This document shows, piece by piece, positions 8,013-62,664 of a stretch of 64,000 nucleotides of DNA (the stretch's first letter is position 1; every line of letters begins with the position of its first letter). A program made the position numbers and the translations under genes. The notes beneath the pieces were generated by a model. That model was not told the DNA's origin. It saw only the letters and a program-made list of their open reading frames with translations, and searched no databases. Source of the DNA: an uncultured delta proteobacterium (GTDB lineage: Bacteria; Desulfobacterota; RBG-13-43-22); NCBI GenBank assembly GCA_963790475.1, contig CAWBOS010000010.1:1824001-1888000 (forward strand). The letters run 5' to 3'.

Positions 8013-8281
8013 CTTGGCCGTGCTAAGCGGGGAGCTGGCGGTGCCCTGTACCCGAAATCCGCTCATGCGGGGCAGAATCTCCTTTTGAGGGTTGTAATAA
8101 CAGTAAAGGTTCCTTTATCTAAGGTCAGAATTGGACGGTACGCAACAAACGGTTATGAACTCCGTCAGGTCTGGAAGGAAGCAGCGGTAAATAATGCGGT
8201 TTGTGTCGTATCTATCTCCAATCCTCGTCGTTAGGGCAAGGTCTTTAGTGTCGTTGATTCGAGAAAGGATGCACGGCCAAG
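8013..8281 (+). ncRNA. ffs: Large bacterial SRP RNA (Alu-domain type)
   Basis: 5' GCCGTGCTAAGCGGGGAG..GCGGTGCCCTGTACC..AATCCGC Alu-domain start; helix 8 GTCAGGTCTGGAAGGAAGCAGC; ends CTTGGCCGTGC / GCACGGCCAAG pair. Confidence 0.93.
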
Positions 8282-53655: not shown

Positions 53656-55638
53656 CCCATCTTCCGCAGTTAGAAAGCATGGAAGACGCGATATCAAATA
53701 GTTACGACAAGAATTAGGGCATTTTCTTCACTACATTTTCAATAATTTTTGGTTTGTTGGGGAGCAGAATTTTCAATCTCTGAAGCAGCACTTTGAGTTC
53801 CTTTGAGGGAGTAGCCACCATTCTGAGCCGGAGGGTTCTCTCCCGCGCCGGTAGTAGCACATCCAAAGATTTCAATTCCCGCAACTCCTCCAACAGCTTT
53901 CTTGGGGCGGTACCGAGTCCCGAGGCTTTCATCCATTGCTGGAGCGTTCGCCACATAGTCAGCGCCAAGAAGCAGACCAGGATATGAGCCTGGGTCCGTT
54001 CCTGTTTTTGATGGAAGATCGGTCGCATTCCCAGATCATGTTTCTCGGTACGGAATGAATCTTCCACTTCCGTCAGTTGGATGTAGGTATTCCATAGGAC
54101 TTTCGGGTCACTTTCGGTCCAGTTGGTGCGCAGGATGTAGCTACCGCCGGTCTCCAAGGCCCACTGTTGCCGTTGTTCGTTCTTCTTGACTTCTAGGGAA
54201 AGCGGTGCGTCTTTTCCGGTACCGGTCTCTATGACTGTAATATTGAACAACGAGGCCGCACGTTTATTTTGTTCCAGCAGTCGCCCTATTCTCCGCTCGA
54301 CTTTCTGCTTGTCTCGGAGCTTGCCGGTTTCGGCCTGGCGGGCCAGGTGATCCAGTTGGCTTTCCAGTCGGGTCAAAAAGTGGTTTAGAATGGCGTTTTC
54401 TTTCTCCTTCCGGCCTTGAGACCGGCACAGGACAAAGATTTCATCCGTTCCTTCCGGCGAGCAACAGAGCTTGACCTCAACATCAGGTTGGACCGCTTCC
54501 CAGTTCTGTTCGAAAAGCTGCTGCTCAAACTTCTTCAGCATCACTTTTGGGGTGCCGACCAAATAGCGGGCACCGACTTTGCGCATAAACTCCAGATTCT
54601 CCTCACTCACCATGCCGCGATCCATAACCCAGATCCGGTTGGCTTGGCCGTATTTGGCCTCCATCATCTGAACCATCTCTTGGGTCGTCGTAACATCCGG
54701 TCGATTGCCGTCAAAAACCTCAAAGGCTATGGGAAAGCCCTCTCGGGTGGCCACCAGGCCGATGCAGACCTGGGGACAATCTGGACGACTGTCCCGGCTG
54801 TAACCCCTCTTGGCCTGGGCATTGCCCTTGGCGGTCCCCTCAAAATAGGTGGAGGTTATGTCATAAAACAAAAAATCAAAGCTACTGCCGAACAGTTCCC
54901 CATAACGCTCCTGAAGGTGACGGCTTAAGGCATCCTTGTGGGGAAGCAAGGCATCCAGGGCACGATAAAGCCGATCCTCATTGATCTTATAGTCGGCCAC
55001 TCCCAGCAGATCGTCTAAGGCCGTCTGGCCATACCAAAACTCGGCCATCTGTAATTCCGACGATGGGGCGCAAAAGCGTCCAAGAACTAAAATAGACGCC
55101 ATGATCGACCAAGGAATCTCTTCCCGGTTGGAAGGAATATGATCTCGGCAGAACCTGGCAAGCCCCAGTTTGTTCCACAAAAGCAACCCCAAATAGACAT
55201 CGCCGAAGCCTCTGAGTCGCTCGACGCTTACGCCATGGATATTGACCGTGGCCCAAGATGGGGGGTCTTCCCCCTGCTCAAACAGTTCAGGTCCAGGTAG
55301 AGGCTTTCCGGAAAGAATCCGTCCGATCTCCTCCCAACCTATCCGCTCTTCCCGATCAAGGCCAGGAAGTTTCCCTATCGTCGCCACTACTCGCTGACGG
55401 GGCCCTCGGGCAGTACGGACCGACTCAACTAAAAGCCAGCTCTCGTACTCCGCTCCACCTTTCTTTTTGGTCGCACGCCGGAGATACATAACCCCATTAT
55501 CTCCGTTCCCACAGCACCTGGCAAGGGGGTGGTCTTCACTACATCCAATTTTCAAAGATCAGGACTTGAAATCATTTAACAATTCCTGAAAATTCATCAC
55601 GTTTTTCTTGATTTTTTCTCCAAACTGCGGAAGATGGG
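53656..55638 (-). mobile_element. IS1634-family insertion sequence, 1983 bp
   Basis: Perfect 16-bp TIR CCCATCTTCCGCAGTT / AACTGCGGAAGATGGG; CTAG duplicated at 53652-53655 and 55639-55642. Confidence 0.92.
53714..55489 (-). CDS. IS1634-family DDE transposase
   Basis: MYLRR...LVESVR..GPRQR; YDITSTYFEG; GYSRDSRPD; VMDRGM; VEDSFR..K; RPIFHQ. Confidence 0.92.
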   Translation of the reverse strand: MYLRRATKKKGGAEYESWLLVESVRTARGPRQRVVATIGKLPGLDREERIGWEEIGRILSGKPLPGPELFEQGEDPPSWATVNIHGVSVERLRGFGDVYLGLLLWNKLGLARFCRDHIPSNREEIPWSIMASILVLGRFCAPSSELQMAEFWYGQTALDDLLGVADYKINEDRLYRALDALLPHKDALSRHLQERYGELFGSSFDFLFYDITSTYFEGTAKGNAQAKRGYSRDSRPDCPQVCIGLVATREGFPIAFEVFDGNRPDVTTTQEMVQMMEAKYGQANRIWVMDRGMVSEENLEFMRKVGARYLVGTPKVMLKKFEQQLFEQNWEAVQPDVEVKLCCSPEGTDEIFVLCRSQGRKEKENAILNHFLTRLESQLDHLARQAETGKLRDKQKVERRIGRLLEQNKRAASLFNITVIETGTGKDAPLSLEVKKNEQRQQWALETGGSYILRTNWTESDPKVLWNTYIQLTEVEDSFRTEKHDLGMRPIFHQKQERTQAHILVCFLALTMWRTLQQWMKASGLGTAPRKLLEELRELKSLDVLLPARERTLRLRMVATPSKELKVLLQRLKILLPNKPKIIENVVKKMP

Positions 55639-56310
55639 CTAGCCGCAAAGACGAGCTCTTTCGGAAAGTGTCTGTGGGTCAATGTAAAGCCACCGAAGTT
55701 CCTCTCCTACGATACCGTGGTATACAAACCGAAAGCGTACCTCTCCCGGGTAACCTCTTCCGGTTCTTAGATTCTCATCATCGTTAAAAACCCCGCTACG
55801 TCCCATGTCTAAGGACGTCAATAACACCTGGCCGATTGGATTAAGCAGTTCCCGGCATTTAACAAAGACCCTGTCAAGCCCATTAAGGGTTCCCGCAAAT
55901 CCGATGGTCCGGCCGAGAAACAGCAGGGTGTCGTAACCTTCGGCCGGCAGTTCATAAAAGTTGATTTCCCTTACATCCGAAAGCCCCAGGCCGCGCATGA
56001 TGGAAACAGCTTCCGGTAGCACATCTATGGCTGTTACCTCAAAACCCGCCTTTTCCAGATAACGGGCGTGTAGTCCACTTCCCGCCCCCACGTCTAACAC
56101 GCGACCACGACAATGTTTGAGGGCAAAGGCATCGCCGCCGTAATAGTCAGGTTCACGAAAGAAAGCCTGGACGGGTATCAGCTCGCTGACCCCATTCCAA
56201 TAGCGTTTTTCCAGCACCCCGGCTGTGTTTCCCTGGATAAATTCTTTCTAAGCGATACCATAGGGATCTTTTGGAACTACATTCATTTTTTGCTATTCAT
56301 CTTTCCAATG

Positions 56311-57066: not shown

Positions 57067-57080
57067 ATCTTGATCCTCTA

Positions 57081-57145
57081 GTTCAACGGATAGTTTCACC
57101 GGGAACCGCGGGTTATCCGCGATCTGGTGAGACGCCTCGTTGATC
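57081..57145 (-). other. attC site
   Basis: Minus strand GATCAAC GAGGC GTCTCACC ... GGTGAAA CTATCC GTTGAAC. Confidence 0.78.
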
Positions 57146-57149
57146 GATT

Positions 57150-57887
57150 CTATTTTTGTGCTACGACGATCAGTCTGCGACTTGATTCCTTGTCATAAGG
57201 GGTCGATTCCCAGTCACCGAAAAATTCCACTTTATCAAATCCGGCTTCACTCAGTAGTTTCTTCCAGGAATCCTGCAGGCGGATTCTAATACGAACAGTC
57301 GTATACCGAAAATCGGTGATCTCCTGGGTGTGAACGAAATCGAATATGATAAACGTTTGAATGTCCCCTGCGTAGTCAATCACAAAGAGCCTTGTATAAT
57401 CACGATTATTAATGACCGGATCAAAGCGAGGCGGATTCCGCATAGTTGCATCAGAATTCCCTTGGTCAAACACAAGAATCCCGCCGGGGCGCAGCACCGT
57501 TTTCATGCTTAGCAACGCCCGAAGGGTCTCGGCATCTTCCAGAGGTTCATCAATCGCACTGGTAAGGCAGACCACGGCATCGAATTCCGTTGTGTAATGA
57601 TTTGGTAGTTCGCAATAGTTGGCCTTCTGGACAGGAATCTCGACATGTGCCTCTTCAATGTTTTTTCGAGCCCGAGCAAGCATGGCATCTGACAGGTCAG
57701 ATCCGAATACCAATACCCCCATCTTGTGGAACATGATCAAGTCTACACCGGTACCACAGGCACAATCCAGAACCTTCGATACCCTGTGTTTCTCGAATAG
57801 CTGCCGGAAGAACTGTTCACGAGCAGGATTACTCCCCTTCATCCAGTCATACCGCTCAGCAAACCCTTCATAGGTATCTTTCAGCAT
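57150..57887 (-). CDS. Class I SAM-dependent methyltransferase (cassette)
   Basis: VLDCACGTG, GSDLS, FDAVVC, LRPGG. Confidence 0.9.
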   Translation of the reverse strand: MLKDTYEGFAERYDWMKGSNPAREQFFRQLFEKHRVSKVLDCACGTGVDLIMFHKMGVLVFGSDLSDAMLARARKNIEEAHVEIPVQKANYCELPNHYTTEFDAVVCLTSAIDEPLEDAETLRALLSMKTVLRPGGILVFDQGNSDATMRNPPRFDPVINNRDYTRLFVIDYAGDIQTFIIFDFVHTQEITDFRYTTVRIRIRLQDSWKKLLSEAGFDKVEFFGDWESTPYDKESSRRLIVVAQK

Positions 57888-57901
57888 ATTCCTTTTCCCT
57901 T

Positions 57902-57958
57902 GCCCAACACGGCCATCAGCGGGAGTTCCCAGCGAATCGCTGCATGTCGACGTTAGTC
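57902..57958 (-). other. attC site, canonical, 57 bp
   Basis: GACTAAC GTCGA CATGCAGC ... GCTGATG GCCGT GTTGGGC, with an extrahelical G in L''. Confidence 0.88.
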
Positions 57959-57961
57959 GAT

Positions 57962-58025
57962 TTCCGATCGCCTGCGTCACCCGGAGCCGGCTGTTTCGGC
58001 GATCGGGTGCACGCGGTTATTGGGC
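57962..58025 (-). other. attC site with non-canonical AAT core
   Basis: GCCCAAT AACCG CGTGCACC ... GGTGACG CAGGCG ATCGGAA. Confidence 0.78.
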
Positions 58026-58799
58026 CTTACCGTTTTTCGGCCCAGAATTGCTACTGCCACCAAGCGATCCGTGGAGCCGACCGCCTTTGCTGAAGTCATA
58101 GTCGCCAAAATACTCGATTTCGCTAAACCCAGCGGCAACGAGAAGTGCCCTCAACTCCTTCTGTGTCCAGCACTTCATCTCAAAGTCAAAGAGGGCAGTT
58201 TCTTCACCCTGCGACGCTTGTAACACATGGGTTTCTGAGACTAACAAAGAGAGGGTTTCCGGTCGGAGTTTGGTGACACTGCGGAACGTGAGGCTTCCCT
58301 TTTCTGTTATGACCGTCTTTTCGAGAATCGGATTTACCGTCTTTCGGATGACCGTCGAGTCCCATTCTCTTACGTCTATAATCATGATTCCACCTTCCGG
58401 CATCACGCGAGCAAAAGAGGGGAAGACTGCCCAGCGAGAATCGCTCTTGACAAGGTCGTTGAGCACCCCGCGACAGAGAATGGCATCAACAAAGATCTCT
58501 TCCGGCAATTCGAGGATGTCGCCAACCACGAAATCAACAGAGGTGCCAGCCATAGAACTTTTTCTTTTGGCCTCTGCGATCAGTTCCGCGGAAGAATCAA
58601 TGCCGATCACATAAAATCCTCTTTCTGCCATTGCAATAGCGTAGGTACCGGTACCACACCCAGCGTCAAGCAAACGTGCGCCGGTCGCCACTTGTCTCTG
58701 CCGGAGCTGTGCCACGATGAAGTCAGCCCTTTCTTTCACCGGCCCTTCAACCAGCGAGTCATAAGCCCAAGCAAAAGTCGAATAGAATGGCCTCTTCAT
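58017..58799 (-). CDS. Class I SAM-dependent methyltransferase (nested cassette; probable C-terminal frameshift)
   Basis: LLDAGCGTG, GIDSS, GDI. Confidence 0.88.
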   Translation of the reverse strand: MKRPFYSTFAWAYDSLVEGPVKERADFIVAQLRQRQVATGARLLDAGCGTGTYAIAMAERGFYVIGIDSSAELIAEAKRKSSMAGTSVDFVVGDILELPEEIFVDAILCRGVLNDLVKSDSRWAVFPSFARVMPEGGIMIIDVREWDSTVIRKTVNPILEKTVITEKGSLTFRSVTKLRPETLSLLVSETHVLQASQGEETALFDFEMKCWTQKELRALLVAAGFSEIEYFGDYDFSKGGRLHGSLGGSSNSGPKNGKAQ

Positions 58800-58813
58800 T
58801 TTCCCTTCGTGGC

Positions 58814-59371
58814 TCAATCTATTGATATTTCCTTCTTTGCATCAATGATAATGGAAACCATTCCTAGCTTTTTAAGTGAATTCCTTGTATCAAATCTGAA
58901 TGATCTTCCTATCTTCCCATCTATCTCATTCCAATATCTATGATGAAAAACACCATCCTCATCACAATATTCAAGCAATTCACATTTAAATCCAGCTTCA
59001 TTTAATATTTCTAACAACTTATCATAAGTATACAATACCTTATGTGATGCCGCAGGATGATCCGAAGGTCCTGGTCCTCCTACCTTCACCATGTTTTGGT
59101 ACCATTCATTTCGAAAATTACCATCTGGCACAGCAATTCGAATCATGCCTCCAGCTTTTAGATACGCATAACAGATCTTAGCAGCGATCAATCCTTCATC
59201 AAAAGTCAGATGCTCCCATACATGCTCGGCCAAAAGATGGGTAATGGTTCCTTTTTCAAATTTCCTTGCCCATGTAGATTCATCCAATAGATTCAATTCA
59301 TCTTCTTGTGTGGATATCCAGCCATCAACGGTAATAGCCCCCGCTCCAATTATTACTTTCTGATAAACCAT
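58814..59371 (-). CDS. SAM methyltransferase-like protein (cassette)
   Basis: IIGAG, AEHVWEHL, LKAGGMIRIAVPD; AT-rich. Confidence 0.8.
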   Translation of the reverse strand: MVYQKVIIGAGAITVDGWISTQEDELNLLDESTWARKFEKGTITHLLAEHVWEHLTFDEGLIAAKICYAYLKAGGMIRIAVPDGNFRNEWYQNMVKVGGPGPSDHPAASHKVLYTYDKLLEILNEAGFKCELLEYCDEDGVFHHRYWNEIDGKIGRSFRFDTRNSLKKLGMVSIIIDAKKEISID

Positions 59372-59399
59372 ATTCTATCCTCACGCGTGGGAAGCGTCC

Positions 59400-59467
59400 G
59401 ACTAACGTCACGCTAACGGGAAAGCGGGCGTCTTTCCCCGCCGATCCGGTTCAGCAAGTGGTTAGGC
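59400..59467 (-). other. attC site
   Basis: GCCTAAC CACTT GCTGAACC ... CGTTAGC GTGAC GTTAGTC. Confidence 0.88.
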
Positions 59468-59472
59468 ATTCA

Positions 59473-60018
59473 CTATTTCAATTCATTCCGAAGTCCAAGA
59501 ATAAAATCACGAGCATACGCTGTCTTCTCTTCTGCTTGCAGTTTGCCTTCCGGCGTCTGGAAAACGATACGATCAAGGTTATGCTCAAAGATATCTGCCG
59601 TCATCTCGTACGCCTGCCCTCTCGCCCCACCCGTCGTAAAGGCCTTTGCTATCCCGAAAGCACCTAACACTTCCATGTAATTTGCGTCATGAATGATCTT
59701 TTCTTCTGGAGTCCGAGGGTTCTTCAGATGGGTAAGTAGCGATTCAAATGCCTCTTCAATCTCGCTTTGTTGCCACTTGAGGTCACCAAGAAATGAGAAG
59801 ACATTATTTCGAAAGGTCATGTCGTTTCGGATGTGCTCTCCAAGCCCATGGAAGCATGCCAGAAAGCAAAGTCTATGCGGCACCGGATTCATTTCCTGTG
59901 AGATGGATGGTAGACGCGAAATAATCCGCTGTATATGGCGGAAATCATGTCCGGCATCTCTTCCTTCATAATACCGACGGACAAATTGCAGATAAACTTC
60001 AATCTCATTCCTATCCAT
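59473..60018 (-). CDS. HD-domain-like protein with degenerate HD motif (cassette)
   Basis: DAGHDFRHIQRI, ACFHG, IIHDANYMEVLGAFGIA. Confidence 0.75.
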   Translation of the reverse strand: MDRNEIEVYLQFVRRYYEGRDAGHDFRHIQRIISRLPSISQEMNPVPHRLCFLACFHGLGEHIRNDMTFRNNVFSFLGDLKWQQSEIEEAFESLLTHLKNPRTPEEKIIHDANYMEVLGAFGIAKAFTTGGARGQAYEMTADIFEHNLDRIVFQTPEGKLQAEEKTAYARDFILGLRNELK

Positions 60019-60027
60019 CTTATGTTG

Positions 60028-60099
60028 GCCTAACCTATTTCTCACTTGTCCGGTGTAAAGCGCAGCATAACATCGGTCAGGTGAAGAAAATTATTAAGT
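60028..60099 (-). other. attC site (R'' ACTTAAT)
   Basis: ACTTAAT AATTT TCTTCACC TGA ... AGTGAGA AATAG GTTAGGC. Confidence 0.75.
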
Positions 60100-60588
60100 G
60101 TTAGATTCATCATTTCGCCACATTTTAATGTTGTATGTATCAAAGCCAAGTTTTTCAAAAAACCTTTGGGCAATCCCATTAAAATTCCATGTATCAAGGG
60201 CGAAGTTAAGAAACCCCTTCCCCCTTGCAATGGTCTGCATTTCGTTAAAAAGCGCATTTCCGATATGTTGACGTCTGAATCCTTCGTGAACGACTATGTG
60301 ATGAATATAAACTTGTTTTCTTTCATATGTGAGTGGATCTTCCGGTTTATCAATAAATGTTGCCCATAAGTACCCCACAGGAGTTCCTCCTACATAGGCA
60401 ACCAAAATAAAATTTGTTTCTTTATTTAAGATAGAATCGAAGAATTTATTAAGATTTTCATCATTTCCTACGGGCTTAAAAATATCTGGATGATTTTCAA
60501 AATGAATTTTCTGGACAAATGAATTTAGAAAAACGATATCGGGGATATCTTTCTTCTTTGCTTTAATAATATCCATTTGTAGTCCCAT
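60094..60588 (-). CDS. GNAT acetyltransferase (cassette)
   Basis: IVVHEGFRRQHIGNAL, NGIAQRFFEKLGF. Confidence 0.88.
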   Translation of the reverse strand: MGLQMDIIKAKKKDIPDIVFLNSFVQKIHFENHPDIFKPVGNDENLNKFFDSILNKETNFILVAYVGGTPVGYLWATFIDKPEDPLTYERKQVYIHHIVVHEGFRRQHIGNALFNEMQTIARGKGFLNFALDTWNFNGIAQRFFEKLGFDTYNIKMWRNDESNT

Positions 60589-60592
60589 TGAT

Positions 60593-60663
60593 ACTTAACA
60601 CCAAAGTTCACCTGCATTTTGCAGTGAAACGAAAAAGATGTCAGGTGGAATAATTGGTTCGAC
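60593..60663 (-). other. attC site
   Basis: GTCGAAC CAATT ATTCCACC TG ... CAGGTGAAC TTTGGT GTTAAGT. Confidence 0.8.
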
Positions 60664-60685
60664 AGGTTTTGTTATTCCCGGACTT

Positions 60686-61207
60686 TTATATTGATCGCTT
60701 CAACCGATAAAACACATGACGTTGATTATTTTTCACAATATCAGTCTCATAGCAAAAACCTACCTTTTCCATTACCCTGATCGACGCTTGATTGTTTTGT
60801 GCAGTATAACAAACTAATTCGGGTAGCCTTAACTCCTCAAAAGCAACTGAAATTGTTGTTTCAGCCATTTCAGTTGCCAACCCTCGACCCGAAAAATCTG
60901 AGAGTAGCTTGTAACCGACTTCGACTTCATCTCTATTATTGAGAATCATACGTCTAAGGCCACAACGACCGATGAAACAATCACTTGTCTTTTCAAATAC
61001 TACCCATTCACCATATCCGTATTGATTCCAATACGTTAATTGCTGCTCTAAGAAAGATCTTGTCTCAATATTGTTACGAATTCCCCCAAGGGTTGCCATT
61101 ACTTTAGGATCACTGTGCAGAGCGCATAAATCAGTTAAATGGTCCTGGTTGATCCGCTGAAGAAACAATCGCTCGGTTTGAATTCTATCTATGGATTCAG
61201 AAAACAT
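60686..61207 (-). CDS. RimJ/RimL-type GNAT acetyltransferase (cassette)
   Basis: IQTERL, EVGY, GRGLATE, NQASIRVMEKVGF. Confidence 0.9.
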   Translation of the reverse strand: MFSESIDRIQTERLFLQRINQDHLTDLCALHSDPKVMATLGGIRNNIETRSFLEQQLTYWNQYGYGEWVVFEKTSDCFIGRCGLRRMILNNRDEVEVGYKLLSDFSGRGLATEMAETTISVAFEELRLPELVCYTAQNNQASIRVMEKVGFCYETDIVKNNQRHVFYRLKRSI

Positions 61208-61224
61208 ATATAAATCCTTAATCA

Positions 61225-61283
61225 GTTGAATGGGAGGAGTCCGGCGTACGGGTTATCGCGCCGCCTGGACTCCTTGGTTATGC
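61225..61283 (-). other. attC site
   Basis: GCATAAC CAAGGAGTCCAGGCG ... CGCCGGACTCC TCCC ATTCAAC. Confidence 0.78.
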
Positions 61284-62063
61284 TATCCCGTGCTTTTTTC
61301 GCAGTTTGAAAGCGACAGAGCAGGGACGAGTCCTGCAAAAGTTCAGTTTTTTTTCGTTTTCGGCCAGAAGATACCGGTCTTCAGTGATTGCAGGCTCCTC
61401 AAATTTCACAACTTCAAATCCCAAAGAGATGAAAGCCTTCCAATAGTCCGAAAGAGGACGATGAAACCAGATGAATTCAGAAGTGAAGTGTCCCCAAGGT
61501 GGGTCTATACATTTCCTCTGTTCAAAGTATGGAAATGGCCAATAGTATCGTACTGCTTGCCCATCGGTAGAGACGGTTGCGCGTCCTTGGGGAAAGCAGG
61601 AGTGTGAGAACACGACTACTGCGAACCCGTTTGTCTTGAGGACTCGGTTGAAGGCCTTTATTGCTCCGGTTAAATCGGGTGTGTCCATGAGGACATAGTT
61701 ACCGATCACCATGTCAACCGAACCGTCAGCCACGGTCTTAAGCTCGGAACAGGAATCGACTCGGAACGGGACTTGGAGATTCTTCCCACTTGCGATCTCT
61801 ATCATCTTTTCTGAAAAATCAATGCCGATGACATATGCGCCCCGCTCATGGAGCATCCGGGACAGGTAACCTGTACCGCAACCCACATCAAGCACCTTTA
61901 GGCCGGCGACATCACCGACGAAATCCCAAAGGACTGGATCAGAATTCAAGACCCGGTTGCTGTCTCCTTTATCTCCCACCTGAATGTCCCAATCATACGC
62001 AACTCGATTCCAGAATGCGCGTGTCTCTTCTGTCTCGTCTTTGTTTATTATGATATCTTGCAT
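61278..62063 (-). CDS. Class I SAM-dependent methyltransferase (cassette; ATG within GTTATGC, stop within GCATAAC)
   Basis: VLDVGCGTG, GIDFS, FSHSCF, FHRPLSDY. Confidence 0.9.
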   Translation of the reverse strand: MQDIIINKDETEETRAFWNRVAYDWDIQVGDKGDSNRVLNSDPVLWDFVGDVAGLKVLDVGCGTGYLSRMLHERGAYVIGIDFSEKMIEIASGKNLQVPFRVDSCSELKTVADGSVDMVIGNYVLMDTPDLTGAIKAFNRVLKTNGFAVVVFSHSCFPQGRATVSTDGQAVRYYWPFPYFEQRKCIDPPWGHFTSEFIWFHRPLSDYWKAFISLGFEVVKFEEPAITEDRYLLAENEKKLNFCRTRPCSVAFKLRKKHGIA

Positions 62064-62120
62064 AACGGTACCCATCAAGGGGTATGGCTTTTCAGTGTCG
62101 TCTGCATGGGTTGGTTCGCG
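62060..62120 (-). other. attC site
   Basis: CGCGAAC CAACC CATGCAG ... TTGATG GGTACC GTTATGC. Confidence 0.72.
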
Positions 62121-62664
62121 ATATTCTTCCCACTCTGACTTCAGAAGGCCGTACCCGACAAGATCCTCGTACTTGTCCCATTTCTTGACTTGCTGCCGGG
62201 AGTCCTTCCCTGGTCATACCGAGCTTTTGCATGACTCTACCCGATGCTGGATTTCTGCACAAATGCGATGCATGGATTCGGTTCAGGTTTAGCTCCATGA
62301 AACCGAACTTAAGCACAGAACGGCCTGCCTCCGTGCAGTAACCTTGTCTCCAGTAAGGACGGCCGACCCAGTACCCCAGTTCGGCGCGGTCGAAGCGGCG
62401 TTCGATCACAAGCCCGATGGCGCCGACAAGTTCACCGTCCGCCCTCATCGTAATCGCAAAGTTCACAAGTTCTCCGGCCTCGAATCTCGGTTGATGAGTC
62501 CTGATCCACTGTTCAGCCATGCCCTCTTCATAGGGGTGTGGGATATTGAGTGTCGTGTCGGCGATGGCACGGTCGCCTGCAAGGAGCCGGACGTCGGTGA
62601 CGTCGCTCATCTCGAATGGTCGCAGAATCAGCCGTTCAGTTTTCAAAGTCGGAAGTTGCTTCAT
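62092..62664 (-). CDS. RimJ/RimL-type GNAT acetyltransferase (cassette; C-terminal frameshift near 62200)
   Basis: LKTERLILRPF, AELGYW, NPASGRVMQKLGM. Confidence 0.88.
   Translation of the reverse strand: MKQLPTLKTERLILRPFEMSDVTDVRLLAGDRAIADTTLNIPHPYEEGMAEQWIRTHQPRFEAGELVNFAITMRADGELVGAIGLVIERRFDRAELGYWVGRPYWRQGYCTEAGRSVLKFGFMELNLNRIHASHLCRNPASGRVMQKLGMTREGLPAASQEMGQVRGSCRVRPSEVRVGRISRTNPCRRH

Follow-up and report, generated by a model that had tools for sequence, protein, structure and literature searches.

We analysed a stretch of 64,000 nucleotides (the window, G000:C10:1824001-1888000) from contig C10 of G000, the metagenome-assembled genome (MAG) of an uncultured delta proteobacterium, and in it an array of gene cassettes in which one cassette appears to have been inserted inside another. 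The array is a minus-strand run of small co-oriented genes that extends from ~53.1 to ~64.9 kb, continuing 0.4 kb past the window end, and that encodes class I S-adenosylmethionine (SAM) methyltransferases, GNAT acetyltransferases and one phosphorylase-family protein. Such a gene content and layout are typical of integron cassette arrays. Two of the methyltransferase genes, A (58814-59371) and B (58017-58799), are followed by two attC recombination sites lying almost end to end, the inner attC (57963-58025) at the end of gene B and the outer attC (57902-57958) further downstream. We propose that an integron integrase placed cassette B into the 3' tail of cassette A, at a GAT triplet used as a secondary site of the GWT type, and we give this reading a probability of about 0.65. 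Positions are those of the window unless a contig is named, and all genes and sites of the array lie on the minus strand.

The cassette that precedes A ends in an attC at 59400-59467, with R'' GCCTAAC (59467-59461) and R' G|TTAGTC (59406-59400), which was matched over 59394-59472 (30 bits, E 1.6e-6) by R1, a covariance model of the attC family described below. Its crossover, 59406|59405, forms the 5' boundary of cassette A, which starts TTAGTC (59405-59400). Gene A encodes a small protein of 185 aa resembling class I SAM-dependent methyltransferases. It has no Pfam match at E<=0.01. Among its 1561 homologues at E<=0.001, identity reaches 66-72% in the best ones, with many in Firmicutes genomes, and their sources name them class I SAM-dependent methyltransferase. 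With its filters off, R1 gave no attC-like match between 58031 and 59393, hence no attC behind gene A. A matching site is found ~850 nt beyond the gene: the outer attC, 57 nt long, has an R'' GACTAAC (57958-57952) complementary at 7/7 positions to the G|TTAGTC opening cassette A, and an R' G|TTGGGC (57908-57902). R1 matched it with 19 bits over 57904-57956 and, in the whole-genome run, with 30.4 bits over its full length (E 1.1e-4). It combines an R'' ending in AAC, an R' beginning with GTT, a paired L stem, a length within the 57-141 nt range of attC sites and a position 3' of a cassette gene; folded alone it is weakly structured (minimum free energy, MFE, -6.5 kcal/mol) and the R box does not show in the fold. 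On its sequence, the outer attC is the predicted closing site of cassette A. Among 401 genomes of the phylum, two good homologues of gene A were found (in G054 and G024), neither in a cassette context, and they are therefore silent on the native attC of A.

The attC sites were detected with a family covariance model because a simple scan for AAC...GTT complements was too unspecific and an MFE-based scan too strict. The family was exposed by a DNA search of related genomes with the whole region, which matched only ~45 nt within the inner attC. The corresponding 22-letter core pattern gave 77 matches in 76 stretches of public genomes (loci L040-L115), mostly MAGs titled Thermodesulfobacteriota, Syntrophaceae, Smithella, Syntrophus or deltaproteobacteria, with further titles naming Nitrospirae, NC10, Nitrospinota, Zetaproteobacteria, Spirochaetales, Calditrichaeota and Holophaga. 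Sixty attC rows from other genomes, the window being left out, were aligned (alignment A3). Loci with stemless flanks, taken as chance or coding matches (L042, L048, L060, L062, L071, L099, L105, L106, L108, L109), loci with a deviant or truncated 5' half (L047, L061, L088, L112), L111 at a contig end, L080 with a deviant 3' end and one duplicate copy in L095 were not included. The family sites consist of a 7-nt R'' ending in AAC, ~4 nt, a 10-nt stem arm with one extra base and a 22-nt loop, followed by a 9-nt stem arm, ~4 nt and GTT plus four bases. In A3 the stem is paired in 93% of cells, 7/9 pairs change on both sides and the covariation lies above that of all 500/500 shuffles. The outer four R-box positions are paired only about half the time, as expected since the next cassette supplies the four bases that follow GTT. 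The model R1 was built from A3 and run on the whole window.

The inner attC is the best match of this model in the window (57957-58030, 57.9 bits, E 1.7e-15), full length and with three non-standard R-box pairs. It has R'' GCCCAAT at 58025-58019 and, at the R' position, GATCGGA at 57969-57963; in the register of alignment A2 its stem pairs 58014-58005 with 57982-57974 around a 22-nt loop (58004-57983). The hairpin shows an R box, an L box and an extrahelical base, namely one unpaired stem G, as in the family. The inner and outer sites are two separate, complete and adjacent attCs. Gene B, whose 3' part overlaps the inner attC, encodes a class I SAM methyltransferase (Pfam Methyltransf_25/31/11) with 1120 homologues at E<=0.001, the best being 60-69% identical and covering only 90-92% of B. 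Six inspected homologues end in ...GDYDSAKPVG[A/S]TDRL[V/I]AVA..., a motif that the window encodes in the other frame, as open reading frame (ORF) 57977-58138, which places a +1 frameshift in B near 58094. The native reading frame of B goes on through this ORF into the inner attC; cassette genes often run into their attC.

These results confirmed much of what the first-pass annotation had described from the letters alone. The motifs it named (TTAGTC, TTGAGC, GCCCAAT and GACTAAC) stand at their places on the minus strand, gene A is indeed devoid of an attC of its own while the matching GACTAAC lies ~850 nt away, and the second cassette in between does carry its own attC, R1 giving separate adjacent sites of 57.9 and 19-30 bits. 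It had placed the two attCs 3 bp apart: they are adjacent, and the spacing becomes 4 nt (57962-57959) once GATCGGA is taken as the inner R'. Folding, which it had suggested for both sites, returned for the outer one the weak fold noted above, without R box.

The triplets bordering the inner attC deviate from the family. R'' ends in AAC in 55/60 members; L040 has AAT, as does the inner attC. Seven nucleotides after the GA of the 3' stem arm, 50/60 members have GTT, and the inner site has GAT (57969-57967). In the remaining members GTT is displaced by 1-3 nt (three sites) or replaced by GTA (three), GTG (three) or GTC (one). Seven of the 60 thus keep the G with another second or third base, so off-consensus junctions occur in the family. 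Among 11 copies from relatives, L012 (in G039) likewise has GAT after the same preceding letters, and L013 and L014 have ATT. After recombination only the G remains part of the attC, so that a crossover with a GAT site is expected to leave this G with AT behind it.

Both ends of the inner cassette can be examined in this light. At the left junction (58812-58819), a GAT (58819-58817) overlaps TTGAGC (58817-58812), the 5' end of B, the proposed target being joined to the own 5' end of the inner cassette; the last codons of gene A, GAT TGA, are at 58819-58814, the stop itself at 58816-58814. At the right junction (57959-57969), GAT (57969-57967) stands in the family register as G|AT, fits GWT, and is followed by what would be the displaced rest of A's 3' tail (57967-57959). 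The left junction reads ...ATAGAT|TGAGCC, the right one ...GGCGAT|CGGAAA. Since GAT is found at both, the crossover can be located to this triplet and no more precisely. Seven letters formed by the start of B and the preceding base of A, ATTGAGC, pair at 6/7 positions with the inner R'' GCCCAAT, and the fold of the computed circular junction of B gains an R-box helix (-16.6 versus -15.6 kcal/mol).

A single reciprocal exchange within GAT, between circular B and the tail of A, reproduces the observed letters exactly. The proposed sequence of events would begin with a circular methyltransferase cassette B, carrying the 5' end TTGAGC, its gene and an attC of the family common in Thermodesulfobacteriota-type MAGs, which recombined into the short 3' tail of cassette A. 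The target would have been a GAT triplet that lies one codon beyond the point where the conserved part of gene A ends. The likely agent is an integron integrase, with B's attC in its folded form and a double-stranded GWT secondary site as substrates. The insertion would have pushed the attC of A ~850 nt downstream, to its present place 4 nt behind that of B. Genes A and B would now be bounded by the original crossovers of A (59406|59405 and 57908|57907), and would therefore make up one two-gene cassette, in an array that subsequently decayed. The crossover may be read in two ways. In the 7-nt register of the family, the crossover would be G|AT in donor and target alike; shifted on by one base (A|TT), it would give the donor an R' ATTGAGC and make AAT and ATT a compensated pair. 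The start of B at A|TTGAGC, given in the first-pass annotation, is one of the placements allowed. Published triplet data fit either reading: in the excerpted part of PMC2811028, the first base of the triplet must match between the partners, whatever its identity, the second base is tolerant, a T-to-A change even raising the recombination frequency, and GAT is reported as a preferred secondary site. A study of cassette insertion sites across whole genomes, in the portion available (bioRxiv 10.1101/2022.09.11.507474), gives a GWT consensus and describes re-excision as possible. We also tried by hand a two-step history, in which B first entered the outer attC canonically and that attC was then relocated; it was rejected, being off by one base from the letters of the window.

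Relatives of B were then examined for their own surroundings. A metagenome scan gave 4 loci for B, three of them at 48-64% identity, and all 3/3 of these stand in cassette contexts. L036 and L037 have R'' GCCCAAC in ...AGGCCCAAC at the homologous place after the gene, and their attCs end in GTTGGAA or GTTGGGT. R1 scored the downstream site of L037 at 33.7 bits and found another site 650 nt further on; directly upstream of the B-type gene it found a family attC in L036 (31.7 bits) and in L038 (19.3 bits). In L037, TTGGGC, the complement of its own R'', lies 12 nt before the ATG, and in the window TTGAGC likewise lies 12 nt before the ATG of B. By these sequence comparisons, B with its attC belongs to a cassette lineage that travels alone, and its 5' boundary in the window agrees with the one given in the first-pass annotation. 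Un-nested homologs, whose search the first-pass annotation had advised, were thus found for B, and the A-B adjacency is seen in none of the relatives' loci: no A homologue occurs in the B loci (0/3) and no B homologue in the A loci (0/2; tblastn, E<=1e-3).

Public sequencing data were used to examine the assembly. Thirteen public runs were listed, none with half of the sampled words, and the contigs of runs X1, X2, X3 and X5 were compared with the window, where stretches uncovered in any run carry no meaning. Contigs of X1 (Logan) match the window over 57910-58307 and 58651-58838, gap-free and with 0 differences; both junctions fall inside them, flanked to either side by hundreds of unique bases. 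The junctions and the frameshift of B therefore stand in the output of another assembler, although X1 is possibly the source sample and hence not fully independent. The frameshift is probably real rather than an assembly error, since the X1 contig has the same letters. An assembler could have joined two arrays across the repeated attC core, which has 24 R1 matches in G000, and this MAG has an estimated contamination of 9.68%. Yet the identical X1 contigs span both junctions, and the left junction has no repeat, so that we regard this artefact as extremely improbable. The misassembly check at both junctions, also advised at first pass, thus leaves misassembly unlikely, with the reserve just given about X1.

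Runs X2 and X3, from one study, contain gene A at ~98.6% identity, the likeness being lost at 59407 and 59402. This is the 5' crossover of cassette A, as expected for an A cassette standing in another array. At 57956-58019, X2 and X5 show only other copies of the attC core. In X3, record 14 (170 nt, depth 2.2) combines an exact match to 58840-58818, 68 unplaced letters and a match to 57908-57830 with 8 differences. In this contig 68 letters separate a close relative of A from the G|TTGGGC of the next cassette, C, without B, and the likeness to the window ends at the base just before TTGAGC, which is the proposed junction. The jump from 98.6% identity in A to 90% in C means that the two arrays are mosaics of each other; on the supposition that the A tail and its attC have diverged as well, they would drop below the 90% threshold.

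Several observations weigh against the nested insertion. The interval in X3 record 14 is 68 letters, when a plain empty site would leave 59 nt (57967-57909), and this record is one lone contig, at depth 2.2, whose match on one side spans just 23 letters, below the 30-letter guard of the comparison tool. Neither the run contigs nor the 61 relatives nor the order's 21 genomes showed an exact empty site, and the DNA search of these relatives and genomes returned the attC core only, without any further copy of gene A, of gene B or of the outer site. Nothing in gene A demands a lost tail: nine inspected homologues end in ...DAKK plus 3-9 residues and the three closest in KKEITI, KKEILI and KKEIVI, so with the end found in the window, KKEISID, gene A has a normal length. 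The TGA stop of A is literally supplied by the insert, as the first-pass annotation had remarked, and with a gene of normal length this carries little weight. The inner attC lacks both conserved triplets, with AAT (58021-58019) for AAC and GAT (57969-57967) for GTT. In the strict 7-nt register the R box of circular B pairs at only 2/7 positions; the 6/7 pairing needs a shift of 1 nt, corresponding to an 8-nt spacing that is seen in 4/60 family members. The genome of the window also has no IntI (TIGR02249) above the curated cut-off, its best match reaching 105 bits versus 265. Finally, the inner R'' (58025-58019) is complementary at 6/7 positions to the outer R' GTTGGGC (57908-57902), including all four outer positions (4/4). 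Such full outer-four complementarity to the following R' occurs in 0/60 family members, and the nested model has no explanation for it.

This last complementarity lets both attCs fold as one branched hairpin of 124 nt, and 58025-57902 might accordingly be read as a single long attC closing a native two-gene cassette. Its computed fold (-29.0 kcal/mol) has a 6-bp outer helix, GCCCAA/TTGGGC, with two inner hairpins, and its length falls in the 57-141 bp range given for attCs in the part of PMC12901181 available. However, R1, which derives from other genomes only, recognises each half as a complete attC of the family, and the double build occurs in 0/24 matches of the genome and in 0/60 family members. 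The R'' of a single long site would moreover mismatch the cassette start TTAGTC, which the inner-lying GACTAAC matches, and the X3 contig is without B. We hold a single long attC to be very improbable.

The same complementarity would be accounted for if A and B had already been one unit closed by the inner attC, the outer attC having arrived later, at the inner crossover, as an ORF-less cassette of ~60 nt. Once 57968-57909 is taken out, G|TTGGGC becomes the R' of the inner attC, exactly in the 7-nt register, and this R' would be the one complementary to R'' GCCCAAT; ORF-less cassettes are known, according to the part of PMC8876359 consulted. The price is three coincidences, in the agreement of GACTAAC with TTAGTC, in that of ATTGAGC with the R'' of B and in the 12-nt spacing shared with L037. 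An already joined A-B unit also sits poorly with the X3 contig, where gene A occurs without B, and with the separation of A and B in all the relatives' loci (0/3 and 0/2), and the ORF-less cassette would itself start AT, not TT. A late ORF-less insertion is therefore, in our judgement, unlikely.

The tyrosine-recombinase match nearest to the locus lies ~29 kb away and scores far under the TIGR02249 cut-off. IntI above the curated cut-off is present in 22/61 relatives, six of them from the same genus (G001, G002, G004, G007, G009 and G010), and the enzyme is therefore at home in this clade. A tyrosine recombinase of 314 aa at C10:1651376-1652170 (plus strand) was considered as the integrase and rejected, with 105+72 bits versus a cut-off of 265; no match extends over the middle part specific to IntI, and contig C11 carries a second, identical copy. 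The best attC-family copy of the genome (C10:1649476-1649550, minus strand, 73.9 bits) is located 1.8 kb from this recombinase. All six R1 matches in the window are on the minus strand and cluster within 57075-60668 at E<=0.15, with no intI nearby, as in attC-site clusters without an integron integrase (CALIN). Given the IntI genes of the relatives, the array is a CALIN whose clade commonly carries integron integrases, and past integrase action at the locus is plausible.

An origin without any integrase would be in keeping with a genome devoid of IntI. Illegitimate or microhomology-mediated recombination, or replication slippage, could have joined the pieces, the box matches then being due to chance; the array is decayed, with frameshifts in B and in the GNAT gene 62092-62664 and with the transposase-bearing insertion sequence (IS) at 53714-55555, and the junctions share only the 3 nt GAT. 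Against such an origin, both ends of the insert fall within one base of cassette ends defined independently, by the family register and by the spacing in L037, and a 6/7 match to the complement of R'' within the ~14 available positions (the span between the conserved end of A and the ribosome site of B) has by a rough estimate a chance of ~0.02. It seems improbable to us.

For insertion by an integrase, as the first-pass annotation had it, the part concerning a GAT site outside any attC is supported by the family register, the independence of B, the separation of A and B in relatives, the X3 contig and the published GWT consensus. We infer the action of the integrase itself, the order of events and whatever mobility remains. 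The locus looks inactive and fossil-like, its array decayed, because the inner attC has neither of the conserved triplets, B and the GNAT gene are frameshifted, an IS lies in the array and the genome has no IntI. A two-gene unit, proposed at first pass as able to excise whole, also follows from our reading, and its excision appears doubtful in an array in this state.

Other features of the region were recorded along with the two cassettes. Cassette C (57081-57887), which follows the outer attC and starts at 57907, holds a methyltransferase gene (57150-57887, Pfam) and an attC at 57145-57081, matched by R1 at 57075-57150 with 25.8 bits; C is 23% identical to B. Further upstream in the array, R1 gave two more matches, at 60022-60104 (16.6 bits) and 60587-60668 (14.6 bits). 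The gene run is broken up by a DDE transposase gene (PF01609, 53714-55555, minus strand) belonging to an IS at 53660-55660 (minus strand), with inverted ends of ~20 nt at ~55640 and ~53660; the methyltransferase gene 55639-56217 is apparently truncated by this IS. A GNAT gene (62092-62664) and a methyltransferase gene (61278-62078), both on the minus strand, have no attC in between. By eye, another frame at the 3' end of the GNAT gene resembles the C-terminus common to GNAT proteins and continues, in frame, into the methyltransferase gene; the pair may be a gene fusion with a frameshift or else a second cassette of two genes. At 61207-61278 (minus strand), 3' of the methyltransferase gene 61278-62078, there is an attC-like hairpin, read by eye, with R'' GCATAAC and with ATTCAAC at the R' position. 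The R'' of the next cassette (GTCGAAC, ~60652) is nearly complementary to its TTCAAC, and in this reading by eye the hairpin is another non-GTT junction of the same array; R1 gave no match there. First in the array is a short two-gene pair (64941-64443, minus strand), which by eye we take to be a BrnT/BrnA-like toxin-antitoxin. An Rfam search of the window gave no attC match, its only match being a bacterial large signal recognition particle RNA at 8018-8276 (plus strand, 142 bits).

Off-target cassette insertion, at GWT or attG sites, has been shown mostly in laboratory assays and on a few resistance plasmids, with aadB in RSF1010-type plasmids and dfrA14 inside strA as examples. The case described here resembles these in that a complete cassette stands at a non-att site, with the junction at the attC crossover and a GAT target that fits GWT, and in that the attC is left with a non-canonical R'. 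It differs from them in four respects. The target lies within another cassette, between its gene and its attC; the locus is the chromosomal array of an environmental anaerobe-type MAG; two abutting attCs and a two-gene unit bounded by canonical crossovers result; and the donor attC seems to have had GAT/ATT, not GTT. The mechanism of off-target insertion is thus already known and the nested placement is new: our literature search, which did not extend to subscription journals and supplements, found no description of a cassette inserted between the gene and the attC of another cassette.

Fused cassettes such as blaGES-1/aacA4 and blaOXA-10/aadA1, as described in excerpts of PMC8876359 and PMC4670013, likewise carry two complete genes in one mobilisable cassette. 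In those cases the upstream attC is deleted in part or as a whole, whereas here no attC is lost: the attC of the first gene stands intact at the far end (57958-57902, matching the start of A), that of the second gene is kept before it, and R1 showed no attC remnant between A and B. As a whole the array is no different in kind from the CALINs defined with IntegronFinder (PMC4889954, in part), having at least 6 model-supported attCs in 4 kb, small co-oriented genes and no intI found. An IS within the array, as here, was reported in 12% of CALINs in the same portion of that work.

The classical attCs have their variable part in the terminal structure. In the present family, by contrast, the 22-nt terminal loop (GATCGCCGAAAnAnCCGGCTCC, window 57983-58004, minus strand) shows no variation among 60 sites from several phyla, with covariation in the stem around it, and might serve a host factor or a clade-specific integrase as a recognition element. 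The inner attC otherwise recalls taxon-specific attC types such as the repeats (VCRs) of Vibrio, as presented in the accessible part of PMC8352920, being of a sequence-conserved type common to many related genomes. A much broader proposal can be formulated, in which insertion into the spacer between gene and attC would be a recurrent, integrase-driven route to operon-like cassettes of several genes in which every recombination site is kept, the tandem attC pair, able to fold as one branched site of 124 nt, would be functional, moving B, A plus B or neither, and the loop would be a clade-specific recognition element; we think it improbable in this extended form.

If the nested insertion is true, software that calls cassettes on the assumption of one attC per cassette would split or mislabel such units. 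The locus would then be a natural chromosomal off-target insertion in an uncultured environmental lineage, with the off-target site lying within the array itself. It would explain the origin of abutting attC pairs, and it would provide a second route to two-gene cassettes besides the loss of an attC.

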